From Escherichia coli (lineage in GTDB: Bacteria > Pseudomonadota > Gammaproteobacteria > Enterobacterales > Enterobacteriaceae): a DNA stretch of 64,000 nucleotides. The position numbers and the translations under genes were made by a program. The stretch lies in assembly GCF_044324875.1 (NCBI RefSeq), contig NZ_CP172187.1; one strand, given 5' to 3'. The notes beneath the pieces were generated by a model. That model ran no database searches. It was not told where the DNA came from and saw only the letters and a list, made by a program, of their open reading frames with translations. This document shows positions 550-19,100 of this stretch, piece by piece (position 1 is the first letter of the stretch; every line of letters starts with the position of its first letter).

Positions 550-1943
550 TGAGCGCCTCCTTGCTGATTAACCAGTTCACTGATTTCACCCGCGATAATT
601 TCTGCCCGGGTTCCTACAATGACCTGTAGCCCGGTATCTCCGCGTTTTACAACGCCCATGGCTCCGAGTTTCCTGAGTTCTGGCTCTTGAATCATGTCCA
701 TGTTTGCGACCTCCAGGCGCAGACGGGTAATACAGGCATCAATACGCATAATGTTTTCTTTCCCACCCAAAGCGGCAAGATACGCCGTTGCTAAATCGGA
801 GGAACCGGCAATAGCTGAAATGGTTTCCTCATTATCTTCTCTTCCTGGCGTAGCGAGATTAAAGCGACTAATAAAAAAGCGGAACAGGAAGTAATAAATC
901 AGTGCCCATAAGCCCCCAATAGGTAGCATTAATAACGGATGTGAGGCCAGTCCGAATGACAGTACATAATCAATTAACCCAGCCGAGAACGTAAATCCAA
1001 GTTTAATCCCAAGAATTTGACACACAGCCATAGAAACGCCAGTCAGTACCGCGTGGATACCGTAGAGCACAGGCGACAAAAACAAGAAGGTGTATTCCAC
1101 GGGTTCCGTAATCCCCGTCAGGAATGTCGTCAGCGCGAGTGACAGGAATAACCCGGCGACAGCGGGGCGTTTATCTTTCGGGGCTGCGTGATACATCGCG
1201 AGGCATGCAGCAGGCAGAGCAAACATAAATACCGGGAAATATCCCGCCATAAATGCCCCGGCAGAGGGATCACCGGCAAAGAATCGGTGGATATCACCGG
1301 TCACCACGGTACCATCCGCCGCCGTAAAGGAACCGAAAACAAACCAGACCAGCGAGTTAACAATATGGTGCAAACCCACGACGCGAAAAAGAACGTTCAG
1401 TATACCGTACACAAAGGGGCCAACCGGGCCAGACGCTACCAGCCAGTTACCAATTGCATTCACGCCATGCTGTACCGGTGTCCATGCCCAGCCAAGAATA
1501 ACACCCAGCAGCAGGCAACTTAACCCAGTGGCTATTGGGACAAAACGTTTTCCACCGAAAAAAGCCAGATATTCCGGTAACTTGATATTATGATAGCGAT
1601 TATACAGCACGCCCGCCAACAACCCAGTCAGAATGCCAGACAGGACCCCCATATTAAGTTCAGGATTGATAGCCTGCATCACAGAAGTCAGTACCAGGTA
1701 ACCAATCGTACCTGCCAGGCTGGCGGCACAGTGATTGTCCTTTGCAACCCCCCCACTGATACCTATGGCAAACAGTAGTGGTAAGTTTTCAAACAGTGTT
1801 TGCCCTGCTTTCATTACAAACACAATATTGAAAACATCGGGCTGCCCAAGACGTAGCAGCAACCCGGCGACGGGTAATACAGCAATAGGTAGCATCAGTG
1901 CCTTGCCCAGGCGCTGCATGATGACGAAAAAATTCCCCTGCAT
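546..1943 (-). CDS. PTS system glucose-family EIICB component (sugar unknown)
   Basis: 465 aa ORF; N-terminal multi-TM EIIC resembling PtsG/NagE; C-terminal EIIB with DACITRLR cysteine motif. Confidence 0.85.
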   Translation of the reverse strand: MQGNFFVIMQRLGKALMLPIAVLPVAGLLLRLGQPDVFNIVFVMKAGQTLFENLPLLFAIGISGGVAKDNHCAASLAGTIGYLVLTSVMQAINPELNMGVLSGILTGLLAGVLYNRYHNIKLPEYLAFFGGKRFVPIATGLSCLLLGVILGWAWTPVQHGVNAIGNWLVASGPVGPFVYGILNVLFRVVGLHHIVNSLVWFVFGSFTAADGTVVTGDIHRFFAGDPSAGAFMAGYFPVFMFALPAACLAMYHAAPKDKRPAVAGLFLSLALTTFLTGITEPVEYTFLFLSPVLYGIHAVLTGVSMAVCQILGIKLGFTFSAGLIDYVLSFGLASHPLLMLPIGGLWALIYYFLFRFFISRFNLATPGREDNEETISAIAGSSDLATAYLAALGGKENIMRIDACITRLRLEVANMDMIQEPELRKLGAMGVVKRGDTGLQVIVGTRAEIIAGEISELVNQQGGAQ

Positions 1944-2176
1944 AAATTCACCTCAGTAGTCGTTGTTCATTTTGCGCATGAGACAGTAAACCATCTATGT
2001 ACCATTTGTAGACCATAATGTTTTATGGCTAAAAAGACCTACTGATAGATAGCTGTTTTGTGATCTAACGAGCTTTATTTTTCTTCTGTGAGTGATTTCC
2101 AGGATGACAATGGACGCTCACTGGTTAAGAATTGGTATACAGAGATTGAACCAGATATAACCTGCTAAGAGGAACG

Positions 2177-2926
2177 ATGAAAAAAACTCCGCAACCCGAA
2201 TTTCATCTTGATGAATCCAGCGCGATGCCGCTGTATATGCAACTGGTTAATGCCATTAAGTTAGCCGTAGCGGAAGGTCGACTGCATCCTGGTGACGTTT
2301 TGCCGTCAGAACGGACACTGGTAGAGACGTTGAACATTGCGCGAGGCACAGCCCGTAAAGCATTGCAGCAACTGCTGGAAGAGGGCGTTCTCGTGCGTAA
2401 TCAGGGTTCTGGTACATTCGTTGCTCCACATGTACTTCAATCTCTGCCGTTATTGGAAAGTTTCAGTGAAATGGCCGTTGCCAGTGGTGGAGAAGCACAA
2501 AGCGAACTGGTCGGGTATCAGCGTCGGGCATCTGCGCCGGAAGAGCGTCGTGCCCTGCAACTGACAGATGGTAAAGATGAGGTTGTGGAGCTAACCCGAC
2601 TGCGGAAGATTAACGGTATTGCCGTTTCCCTTCAGACAGCGATTTTACCTGCGGCTCTGCTGGATAAAATCAGTGAACTGGATGAGTCGTTGTACCTGCA
2701 TCTGGAGAAGAAAGGCGCTCCAGTGCTGCGGGCGAGTCAGAGCTTCCGCGCAGTGCCAGTGGACAATAAACTGGCACACTATCTGAACATCGGGGAGCAT
2801 GAACCACTCCTGTTGGTAACCCGCACAGGCTTCACTCACGAAGATAAGCCGGTGGAATACACCCGGACATGGTGCCTGAATGATTACTATGATTTTACGA
2901 TTGAGCTACATCGAAAAGAATCATAA
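2177..2926 (+). CDS. GntR/HutC-family transcriptional regulator (HTH plus UTRA-like effector domain)
   Basis: 249 aa; N-terminal GntR-type HTH (SERTLVETLNIARGTARKALQQL); divergent from the PTS operon. Confidence 0.8.
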   Translation: MKKTPQPEFHLDESSAMPLYMQLVNAIKLAVAEGRLHPGDVLPSERTLVETLNIARGTARKALQQLLEEGVLVRNQGSGTFVAPHVLQSLPLLESFSEMAVASGGEAQSELVGYQRRASAPEERRALQLTDGKDEVVELTRLRKINGIAVSLQTAILPAALLDKISELDESLYLHLEKKGAPVLRASQSFRAVPVDNKLAHYLNIGEHEPLLLVTRTGFTHEDKPVEYTRTWCLNDYYDFTIELHRKES

Positions 2927-3013
2927 GGTAATTTTTTCGCATTCTCCAAAAACGGTTTTTAATATACAAAAATCATTATTTATCAAATACATTATTTTAT
3001 GAAAATAAATGTT

Positions 3014-3376
<363 letters not shown>

Positions 3377-3406
3377 TCAACATAGGTCATCCTAAAATAC
3401 ATTAAA

Positions 3407-3487
3407 GATAACAAGATAACAAGATAACAAGATAACAAGATAACAAGATAACAAGGTGTTATCTTGTTATCTCAAGGTGTTATCTTT
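3407..3487. repeat. iteron array: six direct copies of GATAACAA followed by three inverted copies (TGTTATC)
   Basis: Read directly at 3407-3454 (direct) and 3455-3487 (inverted); immediately downstream of the parG-like gene. Confidence 0.85.
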
Positions 3488-3782
3488 GTTTTACTTCTGC
3501 TATCAATCGTGATACCTCTGTTTTTGATAGTGTTTTAAGTGCTTCTACCGCCGCCCTGACAACATCAGAACGATTCACTCTGCCTTTACCTGAAACCATC
3601 TCAGCCGTTATAAGGGCATCAATGTCTTTTAGGTTTTCTTCAAAAAAAGAAATACTCACTGGTTTTGCTTTGCTTACAACCGATGATTTATCTGATGACT
3701 TTTTGGTATTATCAAGGCCAGCCGTGCCACCGTTAATAAATGCTGCCTCGTCACGAGGTGAAGTGTTTGCTCTATTTCTCAC
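3480..3782 (-). CDS. ParG-like ribbon-helix-helix centromere-binding partition protein
   Basis: 100 aa with flexible basic N-tail and RHH-like C-terminus; 4-bp overlap with the upstream ParA-family gene, typical of type Ib par operons. Confidence 0.6.
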   Translation of the reverse strand: MRNRANTSPRDEAAFINGGTAGLDNTKKSSDKSSVVSKAKPVSISFFEENLKDIDALITAEMVSGKGRVNRSDVVRAAVEALKTLSKTEVSRLIAEVKQR

Positions 3783-4405
3783 AGAATAACCTCTTTCACT
3801 AACGCTTCGATTTCTTGCTGGGCTTTATCATTTTGCGTTTCAAAAATTGTCATTGATTCGGCCCAAGCATCTCGATGTGCTTTACGATCACATACCCGGG
3901 AGTTTGCCAGATGCATTTCAGGGTAATCCTTAAGTACTTCAGCTGCCTCATTGGCTTCATTAACAAACATATTTGTGGGCGTCATGTTTAAAACGAGATA
4001 TCCCCGAACATCCTCATTAAAATCTTTTGCTGCTGTAAAAACGGAGCATGTATGAGGCACAACATCCAGGTCCATCTGAGATGGGCGCAAAGGAGAAATG
4101 AATACATCTGCGGCCATCAATCCACTACGCATTTCTGCGCTATCACGGCCAGCACAGTCTGCAATAACAAAATCATAGGATTTTTCGTGTTCCTTTAACA
4201 TGGCTTTGATGTTACCTGTCGCGCCTGTAACCGGAATATGAGGGAGATCTTCAGGGCGATTGTTGTACCAGGTTAATACTGATTTCTGGTCATCTGCGTC
4301 GACAATAATCACTCTATTGCCTAGTGACATCAGATACGCAGCTATAGATACCGCCAGTGTACTTTTACCTACCCCACCCTTTTGACTACCTAATACTATT
4401 ATCAT
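3779..4405 (-). CDS. parA: ParA/ParF-family partition ATPase (small, type Ib)
   Basis: 208 aa; deviant Walker A KGGVGKST at N-terminus; GAGG RBS upstream of ATG. Confidence 0.85.
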   Translation of the reverse strand: MIIVLGSQKGGVGKSTLAVSIAAYLMSLGNRVIIVDADDQKSVLTWYNNRPEDLPHIPVTGATGNIKAMLKEHEKSYDFVIADCAGRDSAEMRSGLMAADVFISPLRPSQMDLDVVPHTCSVFTAAKDFNEDVRGYLVLNMTPTNMFVNEANEAAEVLKDYPEMHLANSRVCDRKAHRDAWAESMTIFETQNDKAQQEIEALVKEVIL

Positions 4406-4413
4406 TATAGCCT

Positions 4414-4500
4414 CATATTAAGTTGTTAAGTTAACAACTTAATATTGCCATCTGAACGCGAATCATGCAATTATTTTTGTTATATTAACAACTTAACAAG
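4414..4500. promoter_or_regulatory. palindromic operator-like sites upstream of the par operon (TTAAGTTGTT-AAGTT-AACAACTTAA and repeated AACAACTTAA motifs)
   Basis: Perfect inverted repeat read at 4414-4443 and related motifs to about 4500, in the par promoter region. Confidence 0.5.
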
Positions 4501-4532
4501 TTATTAAGTATTTGATTTATAGATTAATTAAT

Positions 4533-4580
4533 ATAACAAGATAACAAGATAACAAGATAACAAGATAACAAGATAACAAT
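4533..4580. repeat. iteron array: six tandem copies of ATAACAAG (same 8-bp unit as 3407-3487)
   Basis: Read directly; upstream of the par operon, so the par cassette is bracketed by the same iteron. Confidence 0.85.
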
Positions 4581-4600
4581 ATTATGGGTGGATTACATAT

Positions 4601-5872
4601 TCATAACTGGGCTACTGGCAAATCTGTCCATCTGGTGGTATACGCAGGAGAAAGCATTTCCCGTTTCATTTGCCATTCAGGGGCGGTTCCTCGCCCCGCA
4701 AACCACACTTTCCCTTTTCCAGACTGGTTCAGTTCATCGAGTGTTTTCATTAACTTTTCGCTGTTTTTACGGGGCTGGATCTCATCAAATAATCCCGGCT
4801 GCGCTATACCCGATGGTGTGAAATCAGCCAGCATGACTCCTGCCTTCATATAGCGGTACCCTTCACGCCAGACATGGTTTAAGGCTCTGCATGCGGCGGC
4901 AATAATGTCCCGGCTGTCCTGTGTGGGCAATGGAAGCTTTTCCACAGCGGCATTGCTGTAACAGGGTTCTTTTACTGCAAAGGGGGATGTCCGTACAAAT
5001 GTCGTCACCTGCCGGCAATACTGACGTTCCCCACGTAGTTTCTCTGCGGCCCGCTCTGCATACTGAACAACAGCCTGGTGCATGGCATCTTTGTCTGTGA
5101 TTCGTTCACCAAAACTGCGACTACAGACAATCTGCTGTTTTGCCGGTGGTGCTTCTTCCAGGGATATGCAGGACTCGCCGTTGAGTTCGCGTACCGTACG
5201 CTCAAGAATGACGCTGAAGTTTTTCCGGATGAATGCCGTGTTAGCCTGCGCCAGCTGCAGTGCTGTGTTAATACCCAGCGCATTCAGCTTTTCCGTCAGT
5301 CTGCGTCCTACTCCCCAGACCTCACCAACTGGCTGCAGCCCCAGTAGCTTCAAGGTCCGATTACGGTTTTCTGCCGTCAGCGCGACCACTCCGGAAAACT
5401 GTGGCCATTGCTTTGTTGCCCACTGTGCACTTTTAGCCAGCGTTTTTGTAGGCGCAATGCCCACCCCCATGGTGAGTCCTGTCCAGCTCTTTACCTGTTC
5501 CCTGAGCTGATGACCAAAAACCTCCGGAGAGATGCAATGATTTATCCCCCGCAAATCAATGAACATTTCATCAATTGAGTAGGGCTCAACTGCGGGAGAA
5601 AGCGACTCCAGAACAGCCATAACCCGTTGGCTCATGCTGTGGTACAGCGCATAATTGCTGGAAAATACATGTATTTTCTTCTCCAGGCGCATTTGTCTCA
5701 CCTGAAACCAGGGCTGCCCCATTCTGATGCCAAGGGCTTTTGCCTCCGGGCTGCGCGCGATCACACAGCCATCGTTATTGCTGAGTACGATGACCGGTTC
5801 GTTGCGAAGGTCCGGGCGGAAAACTTTTTCACATGAGGCGTAGAAACTGTTGATATCAGCCAGTGCAAACAT
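4601..5872 (-). CDS. impB: Y-family error-prone DNA polymerase subunit (UmuC/MucB/ImpB family)
   Basis: 423 aa starting MFALADINSFYASCEKVFRPDL, the conserved UmuC-family N-terminus; gene order small-DinI-like/UmuD-like/UmuC-like matches impCAB (symbol by synteny, from memory). Confidence 0.85.
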   Translation of the reverse strand: MFALADINSFYASCEKVFRPDLRNEPVIVLSNNDGCVIARSPEAKALGIRMGQPWFQVRQMRLEKKIHVFSSNYALYHSMSQRVMAVLESLSPAVEPYSIDEMFIDLRGINHCISPEVFGHQLREQVKSWTGLTMGVGIAPTKTLAKSAQWATKQWPQFSGVVALTAENRNRTLKLLGLQPVGEVWGVGRRLTEKLNALGINTALQLAQANTAFIRKNFSVILERTVRELNGESCISLEEAPPAKQQIVCSRSFGERITDKDAMHQAVVQYAERAAEKLRGERQYCRQVTTFVRTSPFAVKEPCYSNAAVEKLPLPTQDSRDIIAAACRALNHVWREGYRYMKAGVMLADFTPSGIAQPGLFDEIQPRKNSEKLMKTLDELNQSGKGKVWFAGRGTAPEWQMKREMLSPAYTTRWTDLPVAQL

Positions 5873-6309
5873 CAGCGTAACTCCCGCGTCCTGTGTATCA
5901 CGTGAGTGACAACACCAAAAATACAGATGTTTTCCGGATACAGTGTGCGGAACTCCGGGCTGTCTGAAACCGGCTCCAGTGCCGGGCGTGGGCGCAACAG
6001 CAGTCGTTTGACGGTGAACTCACCATCGATCTCAGCGATAACGATGTCCCCGTGTTGTGGTTTTTCGGCCCTGTCCACTACCAGCAGATCACCATTCTGC
6101 ACGCCAGCCTGGTTCATCGATTCACCGCTGGCGCGCAGAAAGAAGGTGGCTGCAGGTCTGCTGATGCAATAGCTGTTCAGATCCAGTTCCTGCTCAGCAT
6201 AATCAGTGGCAGGCGAAGGAAAACCGGCCTGGCAACGATCGGCAAACAACGGTCGCACGTAACTGTCATTGCCTGAAGGGTCAGCCGGACGGTGATAAAC
6301 GGTACTCAT
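5872..6309 (-). CDS. impA: UmuD/MucA/ImpA-family LexA-like S24 peptidase subunit
   Basis: 145 aa; C-terminal S24 peptidase region (GESMNQAGVQNGDLLVVD...); ATGA overlap with downstream polymerase gene. Confidence 0.85.
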   Translation of the reverse strand: MSTVYHRPADPSGNDSYVRPLFADRCQAGFPSPATDYAEQELDLNSYCISRPAATFFLRASGESMNQAGVQNGDLLVVDRAEKPQHGDIVIAEIDGEFTVKRLLLRPRPALEPVSDSPEFRTLYPENICIFGVVTHVIHRTRELR

Positions 6310-6554
6310 GCTGCAGGCAGCCAGCTGTCGTCCTGCCAGATTTCTTCCAGCAGAGACAGGATACGTTCTTTATCCTTGTCGTTGCGGGCTCCTGTGACAG
6401 ATACAGACGGGGCGCTGCCCTGGTCTATACGCAGCCAGATTTCCGGGTAGTGTGGTTTCAGACGTCGTTCGATTTCATTCTGTAGCGCCTGAAGTGTGCC
6501 TGATTTGAGGTTTTTTGTGCTCTGGCGGTCGAAAAGAATTTCAATGCGGATCAT
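6306..6554 (-). CDS. impC: DinI-like small protein (ImpC-like), first gene of the operon
   Basis: Start chosen at internal ATG (MIRIEILFDR...) preceded by GGGAGA RBS; C-terminus ...ILSLLEEIWQDDSWL resembles DinI family. Confidence 0.7.
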   Translation of the reverse strand: MIRIEILFDRQSTKNLKSGTLQALQNEIERRLKPHYPEIWLRIDQGSAPSVSVTGARNDKDKERILSLLEEIWQDDSWLPAA

Positions 6555-6577
6555 GTTCTCATCTCCCTTTTCTTTTG

Positions 6578-6593
6578 CTGTATGTATATACAG
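6578..6593. promoter_or_regulatory. LexA box (CTGT-N8-ACAG): CTGTATGTATATACAG
   Basis: Consensus SOS box 24 bp upstream of the impC-like start codon. Confidence 0.8.
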
Positions 6594-6862
6594 TATTCTA
6601 ATAACTGAATCCACACACAGTCAAATGTCATTATTGTGACTAAAAAACGCTCAATTCTCTGAGGGTGTGGCTGTATGCCTGCTGTGGACTGCTGTGTCCA
6701 GCTTATCCACAGCATTTTGCGCACGGTTCTGTGAATAAAATACCTGGTTACCCAGGCCGTGCCGGCACGTTAACCGGGCTGCATCCAATGCAAGTGTGTC
6801 GCTGTCGCCGGCATCCTCACCAGGTCACTCAGCAGTCAGGGAGAAAAATGGCGGATGAAGTA

Positions 6863-7221
6863 TGACGGAGACGGTCGGGCAAGTGCCCGTTTCTTTTCCG
6901 ACAAAGGATGTCGCCGTGCTCCTCTTTTTACTGCGCCGGCTGACGCGGCGCGGCATAAACGCTGCCTGTGGTCAGTGTCCCGCGTCCGGCGGGCACGGGA
7001 CGGGCGCTTTTACCGCTCCCGGCTGGCGTCGGTGACAGTGTACGCCAGCCCGTCGCCCTTTTCTGATGAACGCCCTTCAAGCCGCTTTCGCGGCATAGCC
7101 TTGCCGTCAAAAAGACGACGGCTGCGGTATTCCACGGTCGGCCTGACCCGTTACCGGACGCGGTGAACAGCCCACAGGCAGCGGGGAACGGGCACCACAG
7201 GGGGGCCCTCCCGGTGCTCCT
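6863..7221 (+). repeat. leading-region repeat family A, copy 1 (~360 bp, GC-rich, contains long imperfect inverted repeat arms 6954-6989 / 7154-7184)
   Basis: Near-identical to 8168-8526; ends at the RBS of the downstream gene. Confidence 0.85.
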
Positions 7222-7236
7222 GTGAGGAGAATTCCC

Positions 7237-8163
7237 ATGCCAAACTGGTGCTCAAATCGTATGTATTTTTCTGGTGAACCAGCACAGATCGCTGAGATTA
7301 AACGACTGGCCAGCGGTGCAGTCACACCGCTTTATCGCCGCGCCACAGATGAAGGTATTCAGCTGTTTCTGGCCGGTAGTGCCGGACTTCTGCAGACCAC
7401 TGAAGATGTGCGGTTTGAACCATGCCCCGGACTGACGGCTGCCGGACGTGGTGTTGTATCGCCGGAGAATATCGCGTTCACCCGCTGGCTGACACACCTG
7501 CAGAACGGTGTGCTACTGGATGAAAAAAACTGCCTGATGCTGCATGAACTCTGGCTGCAGAGTGGTACTGGCCAGCGTCGCTGGGAAGGATTACCGGATG
7601 AGGTCAGGGAAAGCATCACCGTGCATTTCACCGCCAAAAGAGGTAACTGGTGTGGCTTCTGGAGTAACGAGGATGTATCGGTGTGGTGGAACCGTCTGTG
7701 TGACAATGTACTGCCGGAAAAAACCATGCCGTTTGACCTGCTGACGGTTCTGCCCACCCGCCTGGATGTTGAAGTGAATGGCTTTAACGGTGGTGTTCTG
7801 AACGGTGTTCCTTCTGCGTATCACTGGTATACGGAACAGTATGGCGTGAAGTGGCCTGTGGGGTATGAGGTGAATATCAGCAGTCAGGGAGACAACTTCA
7901 TTCAGGTTGATTTCGACACGCCGTGGTGTCAGCCGGAAAGCGACGTTATTGCAGAATTAAGCCGCCGTTTCAGTTGCACACTGGAGCACTGGTATGCCGA
8001 GCAGGGCTGCAATTTCTGTGGCTGGCAGCGATATGAGCGTGGAGAGCTTGTTGATGTCCTGTGGGGGGAATTGGAATGGTCTTCCCCGACAGATGACGAT
8101 GAGCTGCCGGAAGTCACCGGACCTGCGTGGATTGTCGACAAGGTGGCGCATTACGGTGGATGA
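7237..8163 (+). CDS. hypothetical Cys-rich leading-region protein (family not assigned)
   Basis: 308 aa from ATG preceded by GAGGAG RBS (MPNWCSNRMYF...); multiple Cys/Trp-rich motifs incl. CNFCGW. Confidence 0.7.
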   Translation: MPNWCSNRMYFSGEPAQIAEIKRLASGAVTPLYRRATDEGIQLFLAGSAGLLQTTEDVRFEPCPGLTAAGRGVVSPENIAFTRWLTHLQNGVLLDEKNCLMLHELWLQSGTGQRRWEGLPDEVRESITVHFTAKRGNWCGFWSNEDVSVWWNRLCDNVLPEKTMPFDLLTVLPTRLDVEVNGFNGGVLNGVPSAYHWYTEQYGVKWPVGYEVNISSQGDNFIQVDFDTPWCQPESDVIAELSRRFSCTLEHWYAEQGCNFCGWQRYERGELVDVLWGELEWSSPTDDDELPEVTGPAWIVDKVAHYGG

Positions 8164-8167
8164 ATTC

Positions 8168-8526
8168 TGACGGAGACGGGCGGGCAACCGCCCGTTTCTT
8201 TTCCGACAAAGGATGTCGCCGTGCTCCTCTTTTTACTGCGCCGGCTGACGCGGCGCGGCATAAACGCTGCCTGTGGTCAGTGTCCCGCGTCCGGCGGGCA
8301 CGGGACGGGCGCTTTTACCGCTCCCGGCTGGCACCGGTGACAGTGTACGCCAGCCCGTCGCCCTTTTCTGATGAACGCCCTTCAAGCCGCTTTCGCGGCA
8401 TAGCCTTGCCGTCAAAAAGACGACGGCTGCGGTATTCCACGGTCGGCCTGACCCGTTACCGGACGCGGTGAACAGCCCACAGGCAGCGGGGAACGGGCAC
8501 CACAGGGGTGCCCTCCCGGTGCCTTC
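8168..8526 (+). repeat. leading-region repeat family A, copy 2
   Basis: Near-identical to 6863-7221; ends at RBS of the methyltransferase gene. Confidence 0.85.
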
Positions 8527-8546
8527 TGTAAGAGAAGGAGGCTTTT

Positions 8547-9230
8547 ATGTCCCGTTTTATCCTGGGTGACTGCGTGCGAGTTATGGCCACGTTTCCGGAC
8601 AATGCTGTCGATTTCATCCTCACCGACCCGCCGTATCTCGTCGGTTTCCGTGACCGTTCCGGGCGCACCATTGCCGGTGACGTTAACGATGACTGGTTGC
8701 AACCTGCCAGCAATGAGATGTACCGCGTACTCAAAAAAGACGCTCTGTTGGTCAGCTTCTACGGCTGGAACCGTATTGACCGCTTTATGGCGGCCTGGAA
8801 ACGCGCCGGATTCAGCGTGGCAGGGCACCTCGTGTTCACCAAAAACTACACATCCAAATCTGCGTATGTCGCGTACCGCCACGAATGCGCCTACATCCTG
8901 GCAAAAGGCCGTCCACGTCTGCCACAAAACCCGCTGCCGGACGTGCTGGGCTGGAAATATTCGGGCAATCGTCATCACCCGACGGAAAAGCCTGTTACCA
9001 GCCTGCAACCGCTGATTGAGAGCTTCACACACCCGAACGCAATTGTGCTGGACCCGTTTGCAGGCAGCGGCTCAACCTGCGTTGCCGCCCTCCAGTCCGG
9101 ACGCCGGTATATCGGTATCGAGCTGCTTGAGCAGTATCACCGTGCCGGACAGCAACGACTGGCTGCCGTTCAACGGGCCATGCAGCAGGGGGCCGCGAAT
9201 GATGACTGGTTTATGCCGGAGGCTGCGTAA
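8547..9230 (+). CDS. orphan N6-adenine DNA methyltransferase (DPPY motif before FAGSGS motif; beta-class order)
   Basis: 227 aa; LTDPPY and DPFAGSGSTC motifs; AGGAGG RBS; no adjacent restriction endonuclease. Confidence 0.8.
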   Translation: MSRFILGDCVRVMATFPDNAVDFILTDPPYLVGFRDRSGRTIAGDVNDDWLQPASNEMYRVLKKDALLVSFYGWNRIDRFMAAWKRAGFSVAGHLVFTKNYTSKSAYVAYRHECAYILAKGRPRLPQNPLPDVLGWKYSGNRHHPTEKPVTSLQPLIESFTHPNAIVLDPFAGSGSTCVAALQSGRRYIGIELLEQYHRAGQQRLAAVQRAMQQGAANDDWFMPEAA

Positions 9231-9452
9231 ATGAACTATGCCGGACACGAAAAACTTCGCGCCGAAGTGGCGGAGGTGGCCAACACCATGTGTGACCTTC
9301 GGGCCAGGCTGAACGATATGGAGCATCGCTGTCGTTTTGATTCCGATGTGCTTGTTGAACGCCTGACACGCCAGACGCTGTATCGCGCCAATCGCCTGTT
9401 TATGGAGGCGTATACCGAAATTCTTGAACTGGATGCGTGCTTCAAAGATTAA
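9231..9452 (+). CDS. hypothetical small protein (73 aa)
   Basis: ATG overlaps upstream stop (TAAATG); within a co-directional gene block. Confidence 0.5.
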   Translation: MNYAGHEKLRAEVAEVANTMCDLRARLNDMEHRCRFDSDVLVERLTRQTLYRANRLFMEAYTEILELDACFKD

Positions 9453-9464
9453 GGGGGAGACGAA

Positions 9465-9899
9465 ATGTACGGAACATGCGAAACACTCTGCCGGGAGCTG
9501 GCAGCGCAGTATCCGGGAGACACGCCGCTGATGCTGGTTGTCTGGTCCCCGGAAGAGATTCAGGCACTGGCTGACGGTATGGAAATTTCTCTGACCGATC
9601 ATGAAATCAGGACCGTCCTGTCGCGCCTGGAGGACATCCCGGAAGACCAGCGGAGTGAATCCGGTATTTCTTCTGCCGCTGCGATGGAGATTATCAGCAA
9701 CGTGAGCGAAAACCGCCAGGTGACCGTCCCTGCTGAACTGCTGGCGTCCCTGATTCAGACCGCCGAACAGGCACTGTGGAAACGTGAATGGGCCGCCCGT
9801 GATAACGGCCTTGCCGTCCCGGAATGTGTTACCCGCCGTCAGGCAGTGATTAATCAGGCCCGCACCCTGCTGAAAAACAACACACACGAAAACAACTGA
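9465..9899 (+). CDS. hypothetical leading-region protein, paralog of the 11376-11798 product
   Basis: 144 aa; GGGGAGA RBS; shares MY..E..RE...VTVPA..L backbone with the 11376 ORF. Confidence 0.65.
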   Translation: MYGTCETLCRELAAQYPGDTPLMLVVWSPEEIQALADGMEISLTDHEIRTVLSRLEDIPEDQRSESGISSAAAMEIISNVSENRQVTVPAELLASLIQTAEQALWKREWAARDNGLAVPECVTRRQAVINQARTLLKNNTHENN

Positions 9900-10013
9900 T
9901 GTTATCGCCGCCTGCCCTCTGCCATTCAGAGACTGACCGGAACCGGGGCGGAACTGGTACTGTCCGGCAGTCAGTGGCAGTCGCTGCCGGTACTTCCGGC
10001 AGACGGAACGCAG

Positions 10014-10487
10014 GTGTCTTTCCCGTATGCCGGAGAATGGCTGACCGAAGACGAAATCAGGGCTGTTCTTGATGCGGTGCACGATGCGGTACGAAGCATC
10101 TGTTACCAGGTGGCAGAAGATACGCGGCGTATCCGTGCGGCGCTGACCACCACCGGTCAGACGTTGCTGACCCGCCAGACGCGCCGCTTTCGCCTGGTCG
10201 TGAAGGAAAGCGATCATCCCTGCTGGCTCGATGAAGATGACGAAAACCTGCCCGTAGTGCTCGATGTCATCGTGAACCGGGGCGCACGTTTTTCGGCAGT
10301 GGAAATGTACCTGGTCAGCGATTGTATTGAGCATATCCTGTCCAGTGGGCTGGCCTGCGATGTGCTGCGTATACCGGATGAACCGCCCCGCCGCTGGTTT
10401 GACCGTGGTGTTCTGCGGGAGGTGGTCCGGGAAGCCCGGACCGAAATCCGCAGCATGGCGGATGCCCTGGCAAAAATCCGTAAATGA
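10014..10487 (+). CDS. hypothetical protein; start uncertain (frame open back to the TGA at 9897-9899)
   Basis: 157 aa from GTG; same frame as the preceding ORF with only one intervening stop. Confidence 0.45.
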
Positions 10488-10638
10488 TGACACTGGCGGG
10501 GTAAATCCCCGCCTTTTTCCTGCCGGTCCCCGGACAGAGCACAAAGGAAGTCGCCGCCGGCTCCGCTTTACCCGGCCATGCGGGGCATGGCCTTGTGGAT
10601 TTTCAGTTATGTGGCCTCAGCGTCGTGTGCGGGCTGTG

Positions 10639-10858
10639 CCGTGCCTCCATCGTAGCCGGGCTTCTGCGGGCGGGTTGCAAGGTAAGGTGAACCGCTGCGG
10701 TCACCCGGTCCCTCCTTCCCGTCTGCCGTGATTTTCCGGTCGTTCACCCGCTCAGATTTCGCGGTCTCACCCTCCAACTCCCGCCAGCCGTGTGCGTCAG
10801 GCTGCGGCTTCCCTTGCGCCCTTGCAACCCTGCAGGCCCGGCAAAGATGGAGGCACGG
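10639..10858 (+). promoter_or_regulatory. long inverted repeat (arms ~40 nt at 10639-10682 and 10820-10858) able to form a large hairpin in ssDNA; Frpo/ssi-like candidate
   Basis: Arms read directly (CCGTGCCTCCATCGTAGCCGGGCTTCTGCGGGCGGGTTGCAAGG vs reverse complement of CCTTGCAACCCTGCAGGCCCGGCAAAGATGGAGGCACGG); just upstream of the klcA-like gene. Confidence 0.6.
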
Positions 10859-10903
10859 CACCGCCCGGTGTCGCGGAATATGTGAACAACGGAGGAAAAC
10901 ATC

Positions 10904-11329
10904 ATGCAATATGCGAAACCTGTCACTCTGAATGTTGAAGAGTGCGACCGTCTGTTTTTTCTGCCTTACCTGTTTGGCCAGGATTTTCTGTATGCCGAGG
11001 CATCTGTGTACGCGCTGGCGAAAAAAATGATGCCGGAATATGACGGCGGATTCTGGCACTTCATCCGCCTGCCGGACGGTGGCGGTTACATGATGCCGGA
11101 TGGCGACCGTTTTCATCTGGTCAACGGTGAAAACTGGTTTGACCGTACGGTCAGCGCCGATGCCGCAGGCATCATTGTGACTTCCCTTGTGATTAACCGT
11201 CAGTTGTGGCTGTACCACGACAGCGGTGATGCAGGACTGACTCACCTGTACAGGATGCGCGATGCGCAGTTGTGGAGCCACATCGAATTTCACCCCGAAT
11301 GCAATGCGATTTACGCGGCACTGGACTGA
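10904..11329 (+). CDS. klcA: KlcA/ArdB-family antirestriction-like protein
   Basis: 141 aa; GGAGG RBS; size and sequence character match KlcA/ArdB family from memory; followed by GGCGGCAATGCCGCC hairpin. Confidence 0.6.
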
Positions 11330-11375
11330 TTAACGGACGGGGCGGCAATGCCGCCCCTGTAAAGGAGACGAGAAC

Positions 11376-11798
11376 ATGTACTGTACTGTTAAAGAAATTA
11401 TCCGCGAAGTGCTGGATACAGACGTGCCGGACAGTGAATGCGTTTTTGCCGTGGTGCTGACCCGTGGGGATGTGCGCCACATAGCTCAGGACTGGAGTCT
11501 GGCAGACGATGAGCTGGAAACCGTCATGCAGCGGCTGGACGATGCCTTTGAGCATGGTGCGGATGTCAGCGTTGTTCACGACGTTGTTCGTGAACTGATG
11601 GAAGAAAAGCGCGCCAGCCGTCATGTGACAGTCCCGGCGATGATGCTGGAAAAAGTGATGGCGCTGGCAGGCAGTGAAATGAAGCGCCTGTATGCCGTCG
11701 GAAGTGAGAACGGGGGCGACGGTGACGCATTCGTCAGGGAGGAACGCGAAGCAATGGACGTTGTGTTACAGGCGCTGGACGGGGAGACGATGTCATGA
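11376..11798 (+). CDS. hypothetical leading-region protein, paralog of the 9465-9899 product
   Basis: 140 aa; AAGGAGA RBS; paralogy visible by eye. Confidence 0.65.
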   Translation: MYCTVKEIIREVLDTDVPDSECVFAVVLTRGDVRHIAQDWSLADDELETVMQRLDDAFEHGADVSVVHDVVRELMEEKRASRHVTVPAMMLEKVMALAGSEMKRLYAVGSENGGDGDAFVREEREAMDVVLQALDGETMS

Positions 11799-11986
11799 AT
11801 ATCAGCACAGAAACCCGCGAAATTCTGCGTAATTACAGGGCCGTGATTAATGCGCGGCGTCGTGAAATGGGGCAGAAACCGCTCACCACCGCGCAGATTG
11901 TTGATGAAATCTGCGATTTTGTGGCGAATCAGCAGGCGGTTTTCCTGGGCGGTCACTACATCTTACAGGGCAGCAGAAACAGGTGA
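11795..11986 (+). CDS. hypothetical small protein (63 aa)
   Basis: ATGA overlap with upstream gene. Confidence 0.4.
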   Translation: MNISTETREILRNYRAVINARRREMGQKPLTTAQIVDEICDFVANQQAVFLGGHYILQGSRNR

Positions 11987-12178
11987 TACAGGGGCAGGCG
12001 GTGGAGGCCGCCTGTCAGCCCGCGCGAAAACCCCTGGCAGGCTGACGCCTGCCGGAAGGGAAGCGGGCCACGCTGGCGCGTCGCCCGTTACCCTTCCCGT
12101 CTGTGATGTGTCTGACTCAGGAGTGTTTCTTTCTTATGTTGCGGAACTGTTCCTGATGTTGTTGTTGTTCCTTTATCT

Positions 12179-12788
12179 GCTGCTCTGATTCTGACTACTG
12201 CAGTGTTGTTCTGTCTGCCGGGCGCACCTTCGGCTCCCGGCTGCCTGGCGGCATCCGGTCGTCAGGCCCGACTCCGACAGGCAGCTGCTGGCGCACCTGC
12301 CAGTCTCCGCCGAACCCGCTGGCGCGGCTTCGGGCTGCCGCTACGGTCCGATGCGTGAAAACCCCGGGCTTGCAGCGACCGTTCTGGTCGCGCCGCCTCT
12401 GTCGCGCCGTGGCCTGCGCTCCAGGCATCCCGGCAAAAAGACGCCGGGATGTAAGGCGCAACGCCGTTTCGCAAACCGCGCTTCACGTCGTTGCTGCGGG
12501 TCCCTGCTCATTGCCTGCCGGGTGCCACACACCCGTATGAGTCCCTGTCGCCGGGGGCATAGACAGCCACAACCTGCCGCACTGACTGTCCAGGGTAAAT
12601 GAACAGCCCACAAAATTTTTTACCCAAAACCCGGTAAAAAATTTTGCGTTCTGCCCAGGACAGGTGCGTCAGGCCGTGGCAGTGATGCCCCTTGCGGCGA
12701 AGGTTCTCAAACGGGTGAAGTTCATACCACAGGGAATACAGCAGCAGGTTCCCGCGAAACGTCAAAACCGCGGCTCCCGAAACTCAAC
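12179..12788 (+). repeat. leading-region repeat family B, copy 1 (~610 bp, GC-rich, internal palindromes); Frpo/ssi-like
   Basis: Three near-identical direct copies (12179-12788, 15536-16167, 23600-24229); contains hairpins such as CATCCCGGC-AAAAAGAC-GCCGGGATG. Confidence 0.85.
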
Positions 12789-13027
12789 GGGTGATGTTCT
12801 TTAAAAATCAGGATTTATTTCAGGCTCCGGCAATACGCATTTATGTGTTCTGTCAGTCATCCGGCTGGCAGGTAATGAGAACGCAGGAACAGAAGGAGGA
12901 AAACACCGGAGAACGTCAGACGCAGATATGAAAAAAGCAGGCCGGGGAGGACCTGCTTAATCCACACCGCAAAAACTGTTCGAGCAGTTTCTGCGGTTCC
13001 ATTCAACAGTCATAAGGAGTTTCATTT

Positions 13028-13258
13028 ATGACGGTAAGTATTGTTTCACCTTCCGCAGCGGCTGTAAAGCCCCGCCGTCATCCCCGTTTCAGACGCGAAG
13101 ACATCCCCGCGCCGGAAATTGACCCCGTGCTGAAAGCCTTCGGGCGACACATAGCCCGGAGTTTTCACCGGGGGCGTGGTGTACACATCCCCGCCATGAA
13201 AAACACGGCCTTCGGGCAGGTGCTCCGCACACTCGAACTGAAACGCGCTTTTAACTGA
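13028..13258 (+). CDS. hypothetical basic small protein (76 aa)
   Basis: AAGGAG RBS; first ORF after repeat B1. Confidence 0.45.
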   Translation: MTVSIVSPSAAAVKPRRHPRFRREDIPAPEIDPVLKAFGRHIARSFHRGRGVHIPAMKNTAFGQVLRTLELKRAFN

Positions 13259-13309
13259 TGAGGTGAGCCGCCCCGCGAGGGGCGGCAACAGATGGAAGGA
13301 GAACATTTT

Positions 13310-14671
13310 ATGACATTAGCAGCAATCACCATGACCGCCCCGGAAGCCGCCAACCCTGTGCAGATGTACCGCGCGACCTACTCACCGGATGACAACAAAC
13401 TGCGCCTGTATGCCGCGTCACGTCTTGACCCGGAGACGTATAAAAAAGTGCATGATGCCGGTTTTCGCTGGGCACCCAAACAGGCGCTGTTTGTCGCGCC
13501 AGCCTGGACACCGGGCCGGGAAGACGTGCTCCTCTCACTTGCCGGAGAGATTGAGGATGAAGACAGCACGCTCGCTGAACGTCAGGAAGCACGGGCGGAG
13601 CGGTTTACCGGATACAGCGGAAAGCGGGCCAGTGAATCCGCACAGGCACTTGATGAAGTGGAAAGACTGGCCGCGATGATCCCGCCCGGTCAGCCCATTC
13701 TTGTGGGGCATCACAGCGAACGCCGCGCCCGTCGTGATGCGCAGCGTATTGAAAACGGCATGAAACGTGCCGTGATGCTCTTTGAGCGTGCGGAATACTG
13801 GGAGGAGCGGGCGCGGTCGGCACTGCTTCACGCGAAGTATAAAGAACGCCCGGACGTTCGCTGGCGTCGTATCAAAAAAATCGAAGCGGATTTGCGCAAG
13901 GCTGAAAAGACCATCGCGCAGTCGCAGAAATATCTGACGATGTGGCGGGCTGAATCGCTGGATCTGAATATGGCAAAACTCATCAGCAGTCATGACCATA
14001 TCAGCGCCTGTTTCCCGCTGGACAGGTATCCGCGCCCGGCAGAAAAAAGCCAGTATGAAGGAAGTCGATCGTTATGGTCGGCCCTGGATGATGACATCAT
14101 CACCACGGAGCAGGCCCGCGAAATTGCGATCCGCTGTCATGAACGGCAGATTCAGCATCAACAACGCTGGGTTAACCACTATCATAACCGCCTGATCTAT
14201 GAGCGTGCCATGCTGGACGAAAGCGGCGGCGTGGTTACCCGGACACAGGATTTTGAGCCGGGCGGACAGGTTTTCAGCCGGGGCGAGTGGCTGACCATCA
14301 TCCGCGTGAACAAAAGCAACGGGGCGGTGAGTTCAGTCACAACGCCGAATTACAGTTTTCTCGGGTACAGCGGCACGATGAAAGTGACACCCGATCGCAT
14401 CACGGACTACAAAGCACCATCGGCAGAAGAGGCTGCCGTCGCCAGTCAGGCCGCGAAGCGTCCGCCGGTAGTCAACTATCCGGGGGAAGGTTTCCGGGAA
14501 ATGACAAAGGCGCAGTGGGCCGCCCTGCCCCGGGACTGTAAGGCCGTGCGCAGTGTGGCAGAGACAGAAGACCACGGGGCATACCGCTACCGCCGCACAA
14601 TGGACAATAATTTCCGCCTGGTGAATGTGTATATCACTGACATGAAAATCACGGAAATCCCACAGAAATAA
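13310..14671 (+). CDS. hypothetical leading-region protein (453 aa, coiled-coil-rich middle)
   Basis: Start at ATG after GGAAGGAGA RBS (MTLAAITMTAP...); no family recognised. Confidence 0.7.
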   Translation: MTLAAITMTAPEAANPVQMYRATYSPDDNKLRLYAASRLDPETYKKVHDAGFRWAPKQALFVAPAWTPGREDVLLSLAGEIEDEDSTLAERQEARAERFTGYSGKRASESAQALDEVERLAAMIPPGQPILVGHHSERRARRDAQRIENGMKRAVMLFERAEYWEERARSALLHAKYKERPDVRWRRIKKIEADLRKAEKTIAQSQKYLTMWRAESLDLNMAKLISSHDHISACFPLDRYPRPAEKSQYEGSRSLWSALDDDIITTEQAREIAIRCHERQIQHQQRWVNHYHNRLIYERAMLDESGGVVTRTQDFEPGGQVFSRGEWLTIIRVNKSNGAVSSVTTPNYSFLGYSGTMKVTPDRITDYKAPSAEEAAVASQAAKRPPVVNYPGEGFREMTKAQWAALPRDCKAVRSVAETEDHGAYRYRRTMDNNFRLVNVYITDMKITEIPQK

Positions 14672-14717
14672 GGTATATCCCCCCGGGAAATCCCCGGGGG
14701 ATGACGGAGATAATGAC

Positions 14718-15281
14718 ATGCACAGTCAGTTAAGAGAACGTATCCGGCTGATGCGCGCAAGGCTGGATAACGCCGCGCCGGTTGCTGAAATCCGGGCTGA
14801 ATCTCAGCTTTTTGTGACTCCTGCCCCGGTCTGTGATCGCCTGGTGACGCTGGCGGAAATCAGCAACCGTGATCACATTCTGGAACCCTCTGCCGGCACC
14901 GGGGCCATACTGCTGGCGATTCGGGATACCGCGCCGGAGGCCATGTGTGATGCGGTGGAGATTAACAGCGGGCTGGTCCGGTATCTGCGGGAAAATTTTA
15001 ACGGTGTCAGGGTACAGTGTGGCGACTTCATGGAATGGCAGCCGGTGCAGTATTACAGCCGGATCATTATGAATCCGCCGTTCAGTCACGGGCAGGATAT
15101 CCGGCATATCCTGCGGGCTTTTTCCCTGTTGCGTCCGGGGGGCGTTCTGGTTGCCGTCTGTCTCAACGGGCCGCGCCAGCAGGAGAAGCTGTTACCGTTT
15201 TCTGACGTCCGCGAGGAGCTGCCGCGCGGCACGTTTGCTTATACCGATGTCCCGACGATGATTATTCGTTTGCGTGCCTGA
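14718..15281 (+). CDS. small SAM-dependent methyltransferase-like protein (motif I EPSAGTGAI, motif IV NPPF), no obvious target-recognition domain
   Basis: 187 aa; N6-adenine MTase-type motifs read in the ORF; GGAGA RBS. Confidence 0.7.
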   Translation: MHSQLRERIRLMRARLDNAAPVAEIRAESQLFVTPAPVCDRLVTLAEISNRDHILEPSAGTGAILLAIRDTAPEAMCDAVEINSGLVRYLRENFNGVRVQCGDFMEWQPVQYYSRIIMNPPFSHGQDIRHILRAFSLLRPGGVLVAVCLNGPRQQEKLLPFSDVREELPRGTFAYTDVPTMIIRLRA

Positions 15282-15525: not shown

Positions 15526-15535
15526 CTTCTTTTTC

Positions 15536-16167
15536 CTGCTGCTCTGATTCTGACTACTGCAGTGTTGTTCTGTCTGCCGGGCGCACCTTCGGCTCCCGGC
15601 TGCCTGGCGGCATCCGGTCGTCAGGCCCGACTCCGACAGGCAGCTGCTGGCGCACCTGCCAGTCTCCGCCGAACCCGCTGGCGCGGTTTCGGGCTGCCGC
15701 TACGGTCCGATGCGTGAAAACCCGGCTTGCAGCGACCGTTCCGGTCGCGCCGCCCCTGTCGCGCCGTGACCTGCGCTCCAGGCATCCCGGCAAAAAGACG
15801 CCGGGATGTAAGGCGCAACGCCGTTTCGCAAACCGCGCTTCACGTCGTTGCGGCGGGTCCCTGCCCGTTGTTGTGTCCGGTGCCATTCACCTGTTTAAGC
15901 CCCTGTCGCCGGGGGCTGATACAGCCACAACCTGCCGCACTGACTGTCCAGGGTAAATGAACAGCCCACAAAATTTTTTACCCAAAACCCGGTAAAAAAT
16001 TTTGCGTTCTGCCCAGGACAGGTGCGTCAGGCCGTGGCAGTGATGCCCCATGCGGCGAAGGTTCTCAAACAGGTGATGGTGAATACCGGAGGGAACAAAG
16101 AGCAGGTCCCCGCAAAACGTCAAAACCGCGGCTCCCGAAACTCAACAGATGATGGGGGCTGAAAACA
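15536..16167 (+). repeat. leading-region repeat family B, copy 2 (immediately upstream of ssb)
   Basis: Near-identical to copies at 12179 and 23600. Confidence 0.85.
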
Positions 16168-16187: not shown

Positions 16188-19100
16188 ATGGCAGTTCGTG
16201 GCATTAACAAGGTCATTCTTGTCGGTGTGCGCCGTTGAAGCGCGGTGTTTTATGGAGTGTTGCCTGAAAAGCAACATGGCTTAGTGGTATAGCCATTGCA
16301 TACTGTGGTTAGCCTTGCTTGGTAACAGGCTCGGAGATCCTGAAAAGGAGAGGTGAACATAGCATCCACAGAAAAGGGTGGTGAATATGGAAATCGTTAT
16401 AAGTATCACCATTCAATGCAAGATGTATATGGATAAACTGGGTTTGTTGAAGTCGAGATCTATGTGGGAAACAGGAAACCAATAACGCAGAACGATTGAA
16501 GCGTTATTCCCGTACTAGCACAAGAAATCCGTCCGACGTTGATTGTGACCACTCTAACGGGCCAGCTATTGATGAAATAGTTAAACGATCGAAAGACATC
16601 CTAAGTACATCGCATCTCCACACCGTGAAACTACGGGACTACCTAAACTGGATTTATACCCAGCATGGTAGCGGAGTCTCCATAGTACTCAAGGTCGGCC
16701 TGTAATGGGTTCCGGCAGTCCGCATTATACGGAAGCAGCAAAGGTATAAATCAACCGGAAGGAAGATGAAAGCCTCACAGTGCTGCGGGGAAGGGAGACA
16801 GTTGTTAGATACATCAATCTCTAAGAGGAGGGTTAGCCAATGCTGCCTGATGAACTTGAGAAAAGATTAGATGGAATTGAGGATGCTTCAAAAAAAGGGT
16901 ATCCAGTACGTAATCTATACAAAATTGCGTGTGAGCCCGGACTGTGGCTGCAAGCCTACGTGAATATACGGGCCAATGCAGGTGCACTGACTCAAGGTGT
17001 ATCAACAGATACCATTGATGGCTTTTCTATCGAAAGAGCAGAGAAGCTGGCAAAAACATTGCGGAGTAGAGAATACGTAGCGAAACCTGTACGCAGAGTT
17101 CAGATCCCAAAAAAGGACGGAAAAACCAGACCGCTGGGGATTCCAGGTGGAGACGATAAACTGGCGCAAGAAGTAGCAAGAATTATTCTGGAAAGGGTTT
17201 ATGAACCAGTATTCTCTGAACACTCTCATGGATTCAGACCAAAACGTTCGTGTGAAACTGCGCTCAGATCTATTCGTCCAGTCTGGAACGGAGTTAAATG
17301 GATCGTGGATGTTGATATCAAAGGTTTCTTTGACAATATCCCCCACAAACTATTGCTGAATACACTGGCAGAGAAAATTAAGGATAAGAATTTCCTGAAA
17401 TTAATCGAACAGTGGCTGAAGGCAGGATATGTGGACAATTGGAAATACCATCGCTCATATTCTGGCACGCCACAAGGTGGGATAATTTCTCCCTTACTGG
17501 CAAATATATACCTCGACAAACTGGACCGTTTTGTAGAACAGAATTTAATTCCTGCATATACAAGCGGTACAAAACGAAGAGCGAATCCAGATATGAACAG
17601 GCTGGCCCATAAGATTCATAAACTACGAAAGAAAGTAGACGGTATGGCAACTGATTCTGAATCAGAAAAAGAAGCCATAAAGAAAGAAATTGAACGACTG
17701 CTTGAAGAAAAACGTTCTATACCATCTCAGGTCATGAACGATCCAAACTTCAGGCGTATGTACTATGTTCGATATGCTGATGACTTCGTAATCGGTGTCA
17801 TCGGCTCGAAGAAAGATGCTGAACATATATCAAGACAGGTCAGAAACTTTATTACTACTTCACTGGGATTGGAAGTTAATGAAGCAAAGACCAGGATCCG
17901 CCATATCTCAGAAGGAGTTAATTTTTTAGGCTATGAAATCAGACAGGCAGATGCAAAGAAATTGCTGAAGCAGAAAATGCAAGGGCGGCACGCTCTCCGG
18001 AGATCCACCACAGGAATTGTGCAGCTCTTCGTTCCTGACAATATAGCCGCTAAATTTTGTCACCAAAAGAAATATGGCTGTTATGAGAATGTGAAGGCTG
18101 TACATCGTTCAAGTCTACAAAATCTCAGTGAAGCTGAAATTGTTCTGACTTTCAACGCGGAAATGCGCGGATTGGCGAACTACTACAGTCTGGCGCTGGA
18201 CATGAAATATAAATTATCAAAATTATATTTCATATGGCAAATAAGCCTTTTTAAGACCCTGGCGAATAAACGACGTAGTTCAGTGAATAAAGTCGCCAAA
18301 TCGCTACGGCAAAATAATGGAGATCTGGCTATTACCGTTCAGGCCAAAAATGGATCCCGAAAGATTGAGGTTTTCAAACTCAAACATGTCAATCGCAACC
18401 GAACAACGATTGTCGATACGGAACCGAGAACCGCACATATCACAACCCGCACAACAGAGATCATGCGTCGATTAGGGGCAAGGATCTGCGAGTATTGTGC
18501 GAAGACTGGGCGCTGCGAAGTACATCATGTCAGAAAGCTAAAAGACCTGAAGAAAGGTCGTAAGGCCGGATATAAACCCAGCTTGTGGCAACTAATGATG
18601 ATCGCACGCCGCCGGAAAACGATGATTTTGTGCGCAAGTTGCCACGACAAGTTACATAGCGGAAAACTACCCGATTTGAGACAGGAAAAGGGAAGAATAC
18701 TCCTGCAACCACCTGTCTCAAGCGGGGATTCTGCTAAATGAGTTTATCCCCAATAAGCTAGCAATGGAGAGCCGTATGCACTGAAAGGTGCACGTACGGT
18801 TCGGAGGGGGGGTAACGGTGATCTAACTCAAGATAAGCAGGACATATTCGCCATTTATCTTGAAAGACCACACGTACCCTACCCTACCGTCTGGGAAAAG
18901 ATCCGGAAGTCCGTTACATCCCAAACGGGGGCGCAGTGGCAAACCTGCAGGTGGCCACGTCAGAAAGCTGGCGCGACAAACAGACGGGGGAGATACGGGA
19001 GCAGACAGAATGGCATCGCGTGGTGCTGTTCGGCAAGCTCGCGGAAGTGGCTGGTGAGTATCTGCGCAAGGGCGCGCAGGTCTACATCGAAGGTCAGCTT

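Follow-up and report, generated by a model that had tools for sequence, protein, structure and literature searches.

An orphan methylase gene of the M.EcoGIX family and the coupled gene yubE in the leading region of an IncF-type plasmid of Escherichia coli

Why does a plasmid of Escherichia coli carry a DNA methylase gene with no restriction endonuclease gene beside it, and what is encoded by the small ORF that begins directly behind its stop codon? To gain insight into both questions we analyzed a stretch of 64,000 nucleotides (contig NZ_CP172187.1 of assembly GCF_044324875.1), here referred to as the window. The features on which the analysis is based are the following:

8158-8525 (368 nt), minus strand: structured element, homologue of the 'class 3' ssDNA promoter of M.EcoGIX (from identity, ssDNA fold and covariation)
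8537-8541, plus strand: Shine-Dalgarno sequence GGAGG of the methylase gene, read from the sequence, 5 nt 5' of the ATG at 8547
8547-9230, plus strand: methylase gene with ATG start, M.EcoGIX-family beta-class N6-adenine DNA methyltransferase of 227 aa
9218-9222, plus strand: Shine-Dalgarno sequence GGAGG of yubE, within the last methylase codons (P-E-A-A)
9231-9452, plus strand: yubE with ATG start, 73 aa, PF27407 (YubE)/phrog_4830, predicted two-helix hairpin
9465-9899, plus strand: DUF1380 gene, third in a tightly packed operon (PF07128, E=2e-52), starting 12 nt past the yubE stop
9912-10487, plus strand: last ORF of the operon, homologue of a 258-aa hypothetical protein of pESBL (tblastn, 92.6% identity over aa 68-257)
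10488-10903, minus strand: structured intergenic element, homologue of the 'class 2' ssDNA promoter upstream of klcA (from pESBL identity)
26367-26381, minus strand: oriT nick-site sequence AGTGTGT/GGTGCTTT with the nick at ~26374 (pattern match, between the SLT gene and traM)

The 227-aa protein contained both motifs from which a preliminary description of the locus had recognized an N6-adenine methyltransferase. DPPY (motif IV) was located at aa 27-30 (nt 8625-8636) and FAGSGS (motif I, the SAM-binding FxGxG) at aa 171-176 (nt 9057-9074). Since motif IV lies ahead of motif I, the order is that of the beta class. The assignment was confirmed by matches to PF01555 N6_N4_Mtase of Pfam (E=4.4e-39) and to NF010253 (PRK13699) of NCBIfam, where profile positions 1-226 of 226 were covered with 488.8 bits at a cut-off of 244. 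The PADLOC model PDLC03228 matched as well (E=7.6e-143). In total, 210 of 227 residues were identical to the DNA methylase at the M.EcoGIX locus of pESBL-EA11 (93% aa identity), and the gene is under purifying selection with dN/dS values of 0.12-0.23. The differences were mostly found within the N-terminal 50 aa and residues 121-128, and owing to these 17 substitutions the specificity of the methylase could differ slightly from that of M.EcoGIX. The methylase belongs to a known, named and very common family, to which the window adds one more allele, here on an IncF backbone.

The likeness to pESBL, an IncI1 plasmid of E. coli O104:H4, extends beyond the motifs of the methylase to its orientation relative to oriT and to its flanks. 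These consist of the DUF1281 gene upstream, of the 73-aa ORF, the DUF1380 gene and an antirestriction gene downstream and of a promoter element with 97.5% identity. On pESBL-EA11 the genes for DinI, UmuD and a polymerase are located on the opposite strand, followed by DUF1281, a 312-nt 'hypothetical' ORF, the 227-aa methylase, the 73-aa ORF, DUF1380 and the antirestriction gene. The 73-aa ORF there starts one base past the methylase stop. Apart from the 17 substitutions, the window differs in that its plasmid is IncF-type and not IncI1 and in that a second copy of the promoter element is present before the DUF1281 gene.

The methylase had been called an orphan, and this description holds for the region searched. 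The PADLOC models of restriction enzymes gave no match in the nine neighbouring ORFs between 7222 and 15281, and no endonuclease family was found with Pfam and PADLOC among the ORFs from 546 to 15281. Instead, the Pfam matches of the flanking genes were to DUF1281, DUF1380, Antirestrict, DinI, UmuD-like, Y-family polymerase, ParA, GntR and PTS. An adjoining restriction endonuclease gene, as expected of a type II restriction-modification system, was thus not found. The sole tested neighbour with a PADLOC match, and this to methyltransferase models only, was the gene at 14718-15281. It represents a second, unrelated methyltransferase-like gene of 187 aa (Pfam MTS, E=9e-8; PADLOC mad2, E=1e-20), which comes after the DUF3560 gene (13292-14671) and has a class-1 Frpo-like repeat upstream.

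Another N6-adenine methylase of the beta class that has single-stranded DNA as its substrate and a protective role for incoming plasmid DNA is DpnA from the DpnII system of Streptococcus pneumoniae. However, DpnA is chromosomal, belongs to a complete restriction-modification system, is specific for GATC and serves natural transformation rather than conjugation. Between the DpnA-named homologue (5hek/5hfj) and the methylase of the window, similarity was restricted to aa 142-205 (E=4e-12).

F-like tra genes, FinP/traJ and a MOBF-type nick sequence identify the window as an F-like (IncF-type) conjugative plasmid. An impCAB/umuDC-like block (DinI-like, S24 peptidase, Y-family polymerase) is located on the minus strand at 4601-6614. 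It is followed by approximately 20 kb with genes on the plus strand: DUF1281, the methylase, the 73-aa ORF, DUF1380, an ArdB/KlcA-type antirestriction gene, DUF3560, ssb, a parB-like gene, psiB, psiA and hok/sok. After hok/sok come the SLT gene, oriT, traM, traJ with FinP and the tra operon through traI of 1756 aa. The sequence AGTGTGT/GGTGCTTT, which we take to be the F/R100-type nic consensus, lies on the minus strand. The minus strand is therefore the transferred strand, and it is the template for the methylase and for every leading-region gene of the plus strand. The methylase gene is separated from the nick by 17.1-17.8 kb and lies where the leading region ends, adjoining the umuDC-like boundary.

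Further observations were made on the same plasmid. Rfam matches typical of F-like plasmids were AS-pc01 (12932-13033), sok (22997-23325, with a DUF5431/hok-region ORF), the traJ 5' UTR with FinP (27181-27290), AS-traG (49209-49294) and AS-traI (61274-61350). Next to the plasmid partition gene, at 546-2926, cargo was found which comprises a PTS EIIC/EIIB transporter (465 aa, minus strand) together with a regulator of the GntR/UTRA type (249 aa) that is annotated in p135-2 as well. The leading-region ssb (16188-19376) carried a group II intron in sense orientation after codon 13. Exon 1 spans 16188-16226, the intron begins with GTGCG at 16227 and ends at 18887, and exon 2 starts at 18888. The intron encodes an RT/maturase/HNH ORF of 633 aa (16840-18741) and matched Rfam RF00029 at 18767-18887. 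Consequently, ssb would need splicing during the single-strand entry phase. The ParB-like gene of the leading region, which has 652 aa in pESBL, was present as two overlapping ORFs (19729-20427 and 20406-21686), which looks like a frameshift near 20376-20427.

What the methylase is likely to do can be derived from published work on M.EcoGIX, the leading-region methylase of pESBL, whose homologues are named YfbB in R64 (94%) and YfeA in F (91%) (PMC4288162). Deletion of its gene reduced the transfer of pESBL into recipients expressing EcoRI or EcoGIII up to 1000-fold and left plasmid stability unaffected (PMC4288162). The enzyme sets m6A at degenerate SAY sites on single-stranded DNA only, with a site occupancy of ~40%, and was active when cloned alone, both in vivo and upon cell-free expression (PMC7736820). 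It is silent in vegetative donors and in the original host, where no modification was detected, and the protection depends on the orientation of oriT, i.e. on expression from the entering strand (PMC7736820). Protection of incoming plasmid DNA, as proposed for the window gene in the preliminary description, has thus been demonstrated experimentally for an enzyme that is 93% identical (PMC4288162, PMC7736820). M.BceJIII from plasmid pBCA072 of Burkholderia cenocepacia, a betaproteobacterial host, belongs to the same family and is described with the same SAY- and ssDNA-specific m6A activity (PMC7736820).

M.EcoGIX is also stated to change the copy number of PolI-dependent plasmids (PMC7736820). 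The association with DNA polymerase I was derived from co-purification and fusion proteins and is incompletely settled in the source paper. Fomenkov et al. suggest that an unidentified intermediary probably connects the methylase to PolI. Furthermore, M.EcoGIX belongs to a set of genes whose expression in transconjugants rises by up to ~500-fold within 15 min, and it has its own hairpin ssDNA promoter, designated 'class 3', as determined by RNA-seq and 5' RACE (PMC12672017). Orphan methylases were found to be enriched in leading regions on the T-strand, and Samuel et al. described leading-region anti-defence islands with the same layout as the window (PMC11541004). Regarding carriers of the window plasmid, the methylome of vegetative cells would most likely be negative for a methylase of this type. 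Since M.EcoGIX is silent in vegetative donors (PMC7736820), absent methylation in carrier cells would be no refutation of the methylase function.

In the window, a counterpart of the class 3 promoter precedes the methylase gene. The element at 8158-8525 was 97.5% identical to the region directly 5' of the M.EcoGIX gene in pESBL-EA11 (L003:4393-4756), an identity higher than that of the coding sequence downstream. Folded as ssDNA, its minus strand reached -110 kcal/mol (z=-7.0), and none of 100 shuffled sequences folded as well. In the two metagenomic plasmid contigs L007 and L008 the element was retained with 74-75% identity 5' of diverged methylases. An alignment of five copies revealed a long basal stem and 7 compensatory pairs overall, 4 of them in this stem. 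Judging from pESBL identity, fold and covariation, the element would act as a class 3 promoter hairpin on the transferred strand. A scan of 6600-9600 gave 0 matches to a double-strand sigma-70 consensus, which fits a single-strand promoter but proves nothing. Candidate -35/-10 hexamers seen by eye in the non-template arm of the hairpin (GGGACA...TATGCC, TAAAAG) were discarded, being weak and not conserved in L007 and L008. In a G.T-pair count on the folding strand, the minus strand gave 84 versus 78-80 pairs in three close copies and 69 versus 69-70 pairs in the diverged copies, a comparison biased by the prediction of the structure on the minus strand. Rfam had no family covering the element, and all of its seven matches in the window were located elsewhere.

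A second copy of the class 3 element (97.8% identical) was found at 6853-7217, directly upstream of the DUF1281 gene (7222-8163). This copy is also present in the IncK2/Z plasmid p135-2 (L001:13754-14118) and absent from pESBL, for which the published work describes one class 3 element only (PMC12672017). Through this copy, the DUF1281 gene may also be expressed early. Two ORFs overlie the elements, at 6855-7166 (103 aa) and 8127-8471 (114 aa), and have RefSeq counterparts annotated as 'hypothetical protein' (e.g. WP_032141194.1 and WP_001310011.1). Since no ORF was called there in L007 and L008 and what is conserved in the DNA is the hairpin, both are probably no genes and were not retained.

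Two other groups of structured elements are located in the leading region; the classes 1, 2 and 3 are used here as defined in PMC12672017. The element at 10488-10903 was 90% identical to the sequence upstream of the antirestriction gene of pESBL (L003:6959-7371) and 87.5% identical to the region upstream of ardA. Additionally, a repeat of ~630 nt with a long internal inverted repeat was present in three copies of 93-98% identity (12168-12796, 15527-16165 and 23590-24228), parts of which matched the sequences 5' of ssb and 3' of ardA in pESBL. These repeats are probably class 1 Frpo/ssi single-strand promoters. The leading region thus contained six elements in total, i.e. two of class 3, one of class 2 and three class-1-like copies. 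The class 1 promoters of F and ColIb-P9 are hairpins on the transferred strand that are recognized by RNA polymerase, as 8158-8525 would be. However, class 3 is set apart in PMC12672017, and a blastn comparison of the element upstream of the methylase with the three Frpo-like repeats of the window gave no similarity.

Downstream of the methylase the genes are tightly packed. The order methylase-YubE-DUF1380 recurs in pESBL, L007-L009 and L011. The ORF at 9912-10487 lacked approximately the first 67 aa of its homologue and matched profile positions 103-258 of 259 of phrog_8919; judged by these alignments, it appears N-terminally truncated or frameshifted. As the element at 10488-10903 follows directly, it bounds a four-gene operon (8547-10487) of methylase, YubE, DUF1380 and the truncated 258-aa homologue.

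The second gene of this operon is the small ORF in question. Its coupling to the methylase, noticed earlier as TAAATG, was found as GCG TAA ATG with the stop at 9228-9230 and the start at 9231-9233. The sequence CCGGAGGC(C/T)GCG followed by a stop/start junction was also present in L007, L008 and L011, where YubE is only 37-49% identical. The junction takes the form TAA/ATG in the window, TGATG in L007 and L008 and TAATG in L011. In frame, yubE had a dN/dS of 0.12, whereas the other two frames gave ratios >1 and contained stops; the in-frame value shows that yubE is a real gene. It had previously been described as unassigned, but belongs to a named family (PF27407 YubE, phrog_4830).

The product matched phrog_4830 over positions 1-73 of 73 (E=1.3e-36), and PF27407:YubE was precomputed on all YubE homologues found. 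The latter assignment rests on this annotation of the homologues, as the Pfam copy searched directly was without that model; accordingly, YubE gave no match in the local Pfam copy, and none in NCBIfam and PADLOC. The family is small: a search of 1.84 billion proteins gave 86 representative clusters at E<=0.001. Its members are gap-free, 73-74 aa in size and conserved in the start MNYxG and the end CFxD. AlphaFold2 with an alignment of 19 sequences predicted two helices (7-33 and 41-72) with a pLDDT of 92 and a pTM of 0.73. A single-sequence prediction as one helix of 70 residues was rejected in favour of this hairpin, which has the higher pTM. A Foldseek search of the model against the PDB retrieved generic helical hairpins only (best E=0.58). 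No match was obtained by tblastn of YubE against GenBank phages, and none of the papers searched dealt with plasmid YubE.

YubE was located directly 3' of the methylase in all plasmid-type contexts with upstream sequence, namely pESBL, p135-2, pTB-nb3, L007-L009, L011 and L012/L013, the last two with an intact YubE after a methylase ORF of only 120-123 aa. Homologues without an adjacent methylase were found in L004-L006 and L010 (prophage-like, beside HicAB), in L014 (MazEF) and in L015 (ICE). The YubE-family genes outside leading regions were 34-41% identical, and those beside HicAB were each followed by a conserved ORF of 76 aa. In the ICE of L015, YubE lies near SSB and a PAPS-reductase-like gene, while Lar, Dam and an N6_N4 methylase of 353 aa are located in the vicinity of YubE in L010.

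This distribution has to be considered together with the coupling when asking whether methylase and YubE form a functional two-protein unit, in which YubE would act as regulator, provide targeting or bridging to proteins such as DNA polymerase I, SSB or the sliding clamp, or keep toxic over-methylation in check. Arguments for such a unit are that the stop/start coupling and the GGAGG within the last methylase codons are retained despite the low identity of YubE, and that YubE directly follows the methylase in every plasmid-type context examined with upstream sequence; the intermediary to PolI posited by Fomenkov et al. would suit it as well. Nevertheless, we regard it as unlikely, since M.EcoGIX is active when cloned alone (PMC7736820), since YubE occurs without an adjacent methylase in L004-L006, L010, L014 and L015, and since it stays intact in L012/L013 beside the short methylase ORF. 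We rather conclude that YubE is an early protein which is co-expressed with the methylase but separable from it. A protein-binding accessory in establishment or anti-defence, rather than a required subunit of the methylase, would be our guess, which is speculative. Only tentatively can YubE be put forward either as a partner of M.EcoGIX-type methylases (as the intermediary to replisome or PolI, or as a brake on toxic methylation) or as a new stand-alone anti-defence or establishment factor.

The methylase itself could be read differently, too. One alternative is that it was left behind alone from a type II restriction-modification system; it would then modify duplex DNA sequence-specifically, be active in the donor and pre-protect the plasmid there. 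PADLOC does place it under type II methyltransferase models, and it shares the DPPY and FxGxG motifs with restriction-modification methylases such as M.RsrI, M.MboIIA and DpnA. This origin is nevertheless extremely improbable: no restriction endonuclease was found among the neighbouring ORFs from 546 to 15281, the same endonuclease-free gene order is repeated in thousands of plasmids, and the 93%-identical enzyme shows neither donor modification nor duplex activity and has a degenerate motif (PMC7736820). Very improbable as well is a role like that of Dam or CcrM, in which the methylase would epigenetically control gene expression of plasmid or host or the timing of replication. CcrM (6pbd) was the nearest solved structure by sequence (E=2e-16), yet over the C-terminal 70 aa only, and the copy-number effect stated in PMC7736820 would also be in line with regulation. 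However, the methylase scored far below the cut-offs of the CcrM/Dam-type equivalogs, with 87.7 bits for NF050803 CcrM (cut-off 830) and 76.8 bits for NF008572 (cut-off 292), and M.EcoGIX is silent in vegetative cells (PMC7736820) and induced only in transconjugants (PMC12672017).

With high confidence we therefore regard the 227-aa protein as an M.EcoGIX-family orphan m6A DNA methyltransferase in the leading region of an IncF-type plasmid, which would act in the following manner. During mating the minus strand would be nicked at oriT (~26374) and pass into the recipient in 5' to 3' direction, from higher to lower window coordinates; strand and orientation are shown by the present analysis. 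At approximately 18 kb into the transfer, 8158-8525 would fold on the single strand into a long imperfect hairpin and, judging from identity, fold and covariation, serve as a promoter for the host RNA polymerase. A single transcript of 8547-10487 would then cover the methylase, YubE, DUF1380 and the fourth ORF, as suggested by the tight packing and by the next element at 10488. Going by homology to M.EcoGIX, the methylase would set m6A at degenerate SAY sites while the plasmid is still single-stranded. After synthesis of the complementary strand, many restriction sites would be hemimethylated and protected, again as expected from M.EcoGIX. Conversion to the duplex would remove the hairpin and switch off the operon, so that vegetative carriers, by the same homology, would be without methylation. 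The known family, the ssDNA-specific mechanism and the hairpin promoter directly upstream at 8158-8525 were overlooked in the preliminary description.

Regarding prevalence, more than 5000 entries of PLSDB contained the methylase at an identity of at least 90%, and most of them were conjugative plasmids from Escherichia, Klebsiella, Salmonella and Shigella. Methylase and YubE together, a segment of 906 bp, occurred in 3362 of the 5426 complete genomes of E. coli, at 4573 plasmid and 55 chromosomal places. Identical copies of this segment were carried by the IncFIA plasmid pTB-nb3 and one other record. The M.EcoGIX family is one reason why IncF and IncI resistance plasmids cross restriction barriers easily, a role that is already established, and the methylase-YubE module is carried by about 60% of the complete genomes of E. 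coli. If YubE is indeed a stand-alone factor, it would be one that is common to plasmid leading regions, prophages and ICEs.
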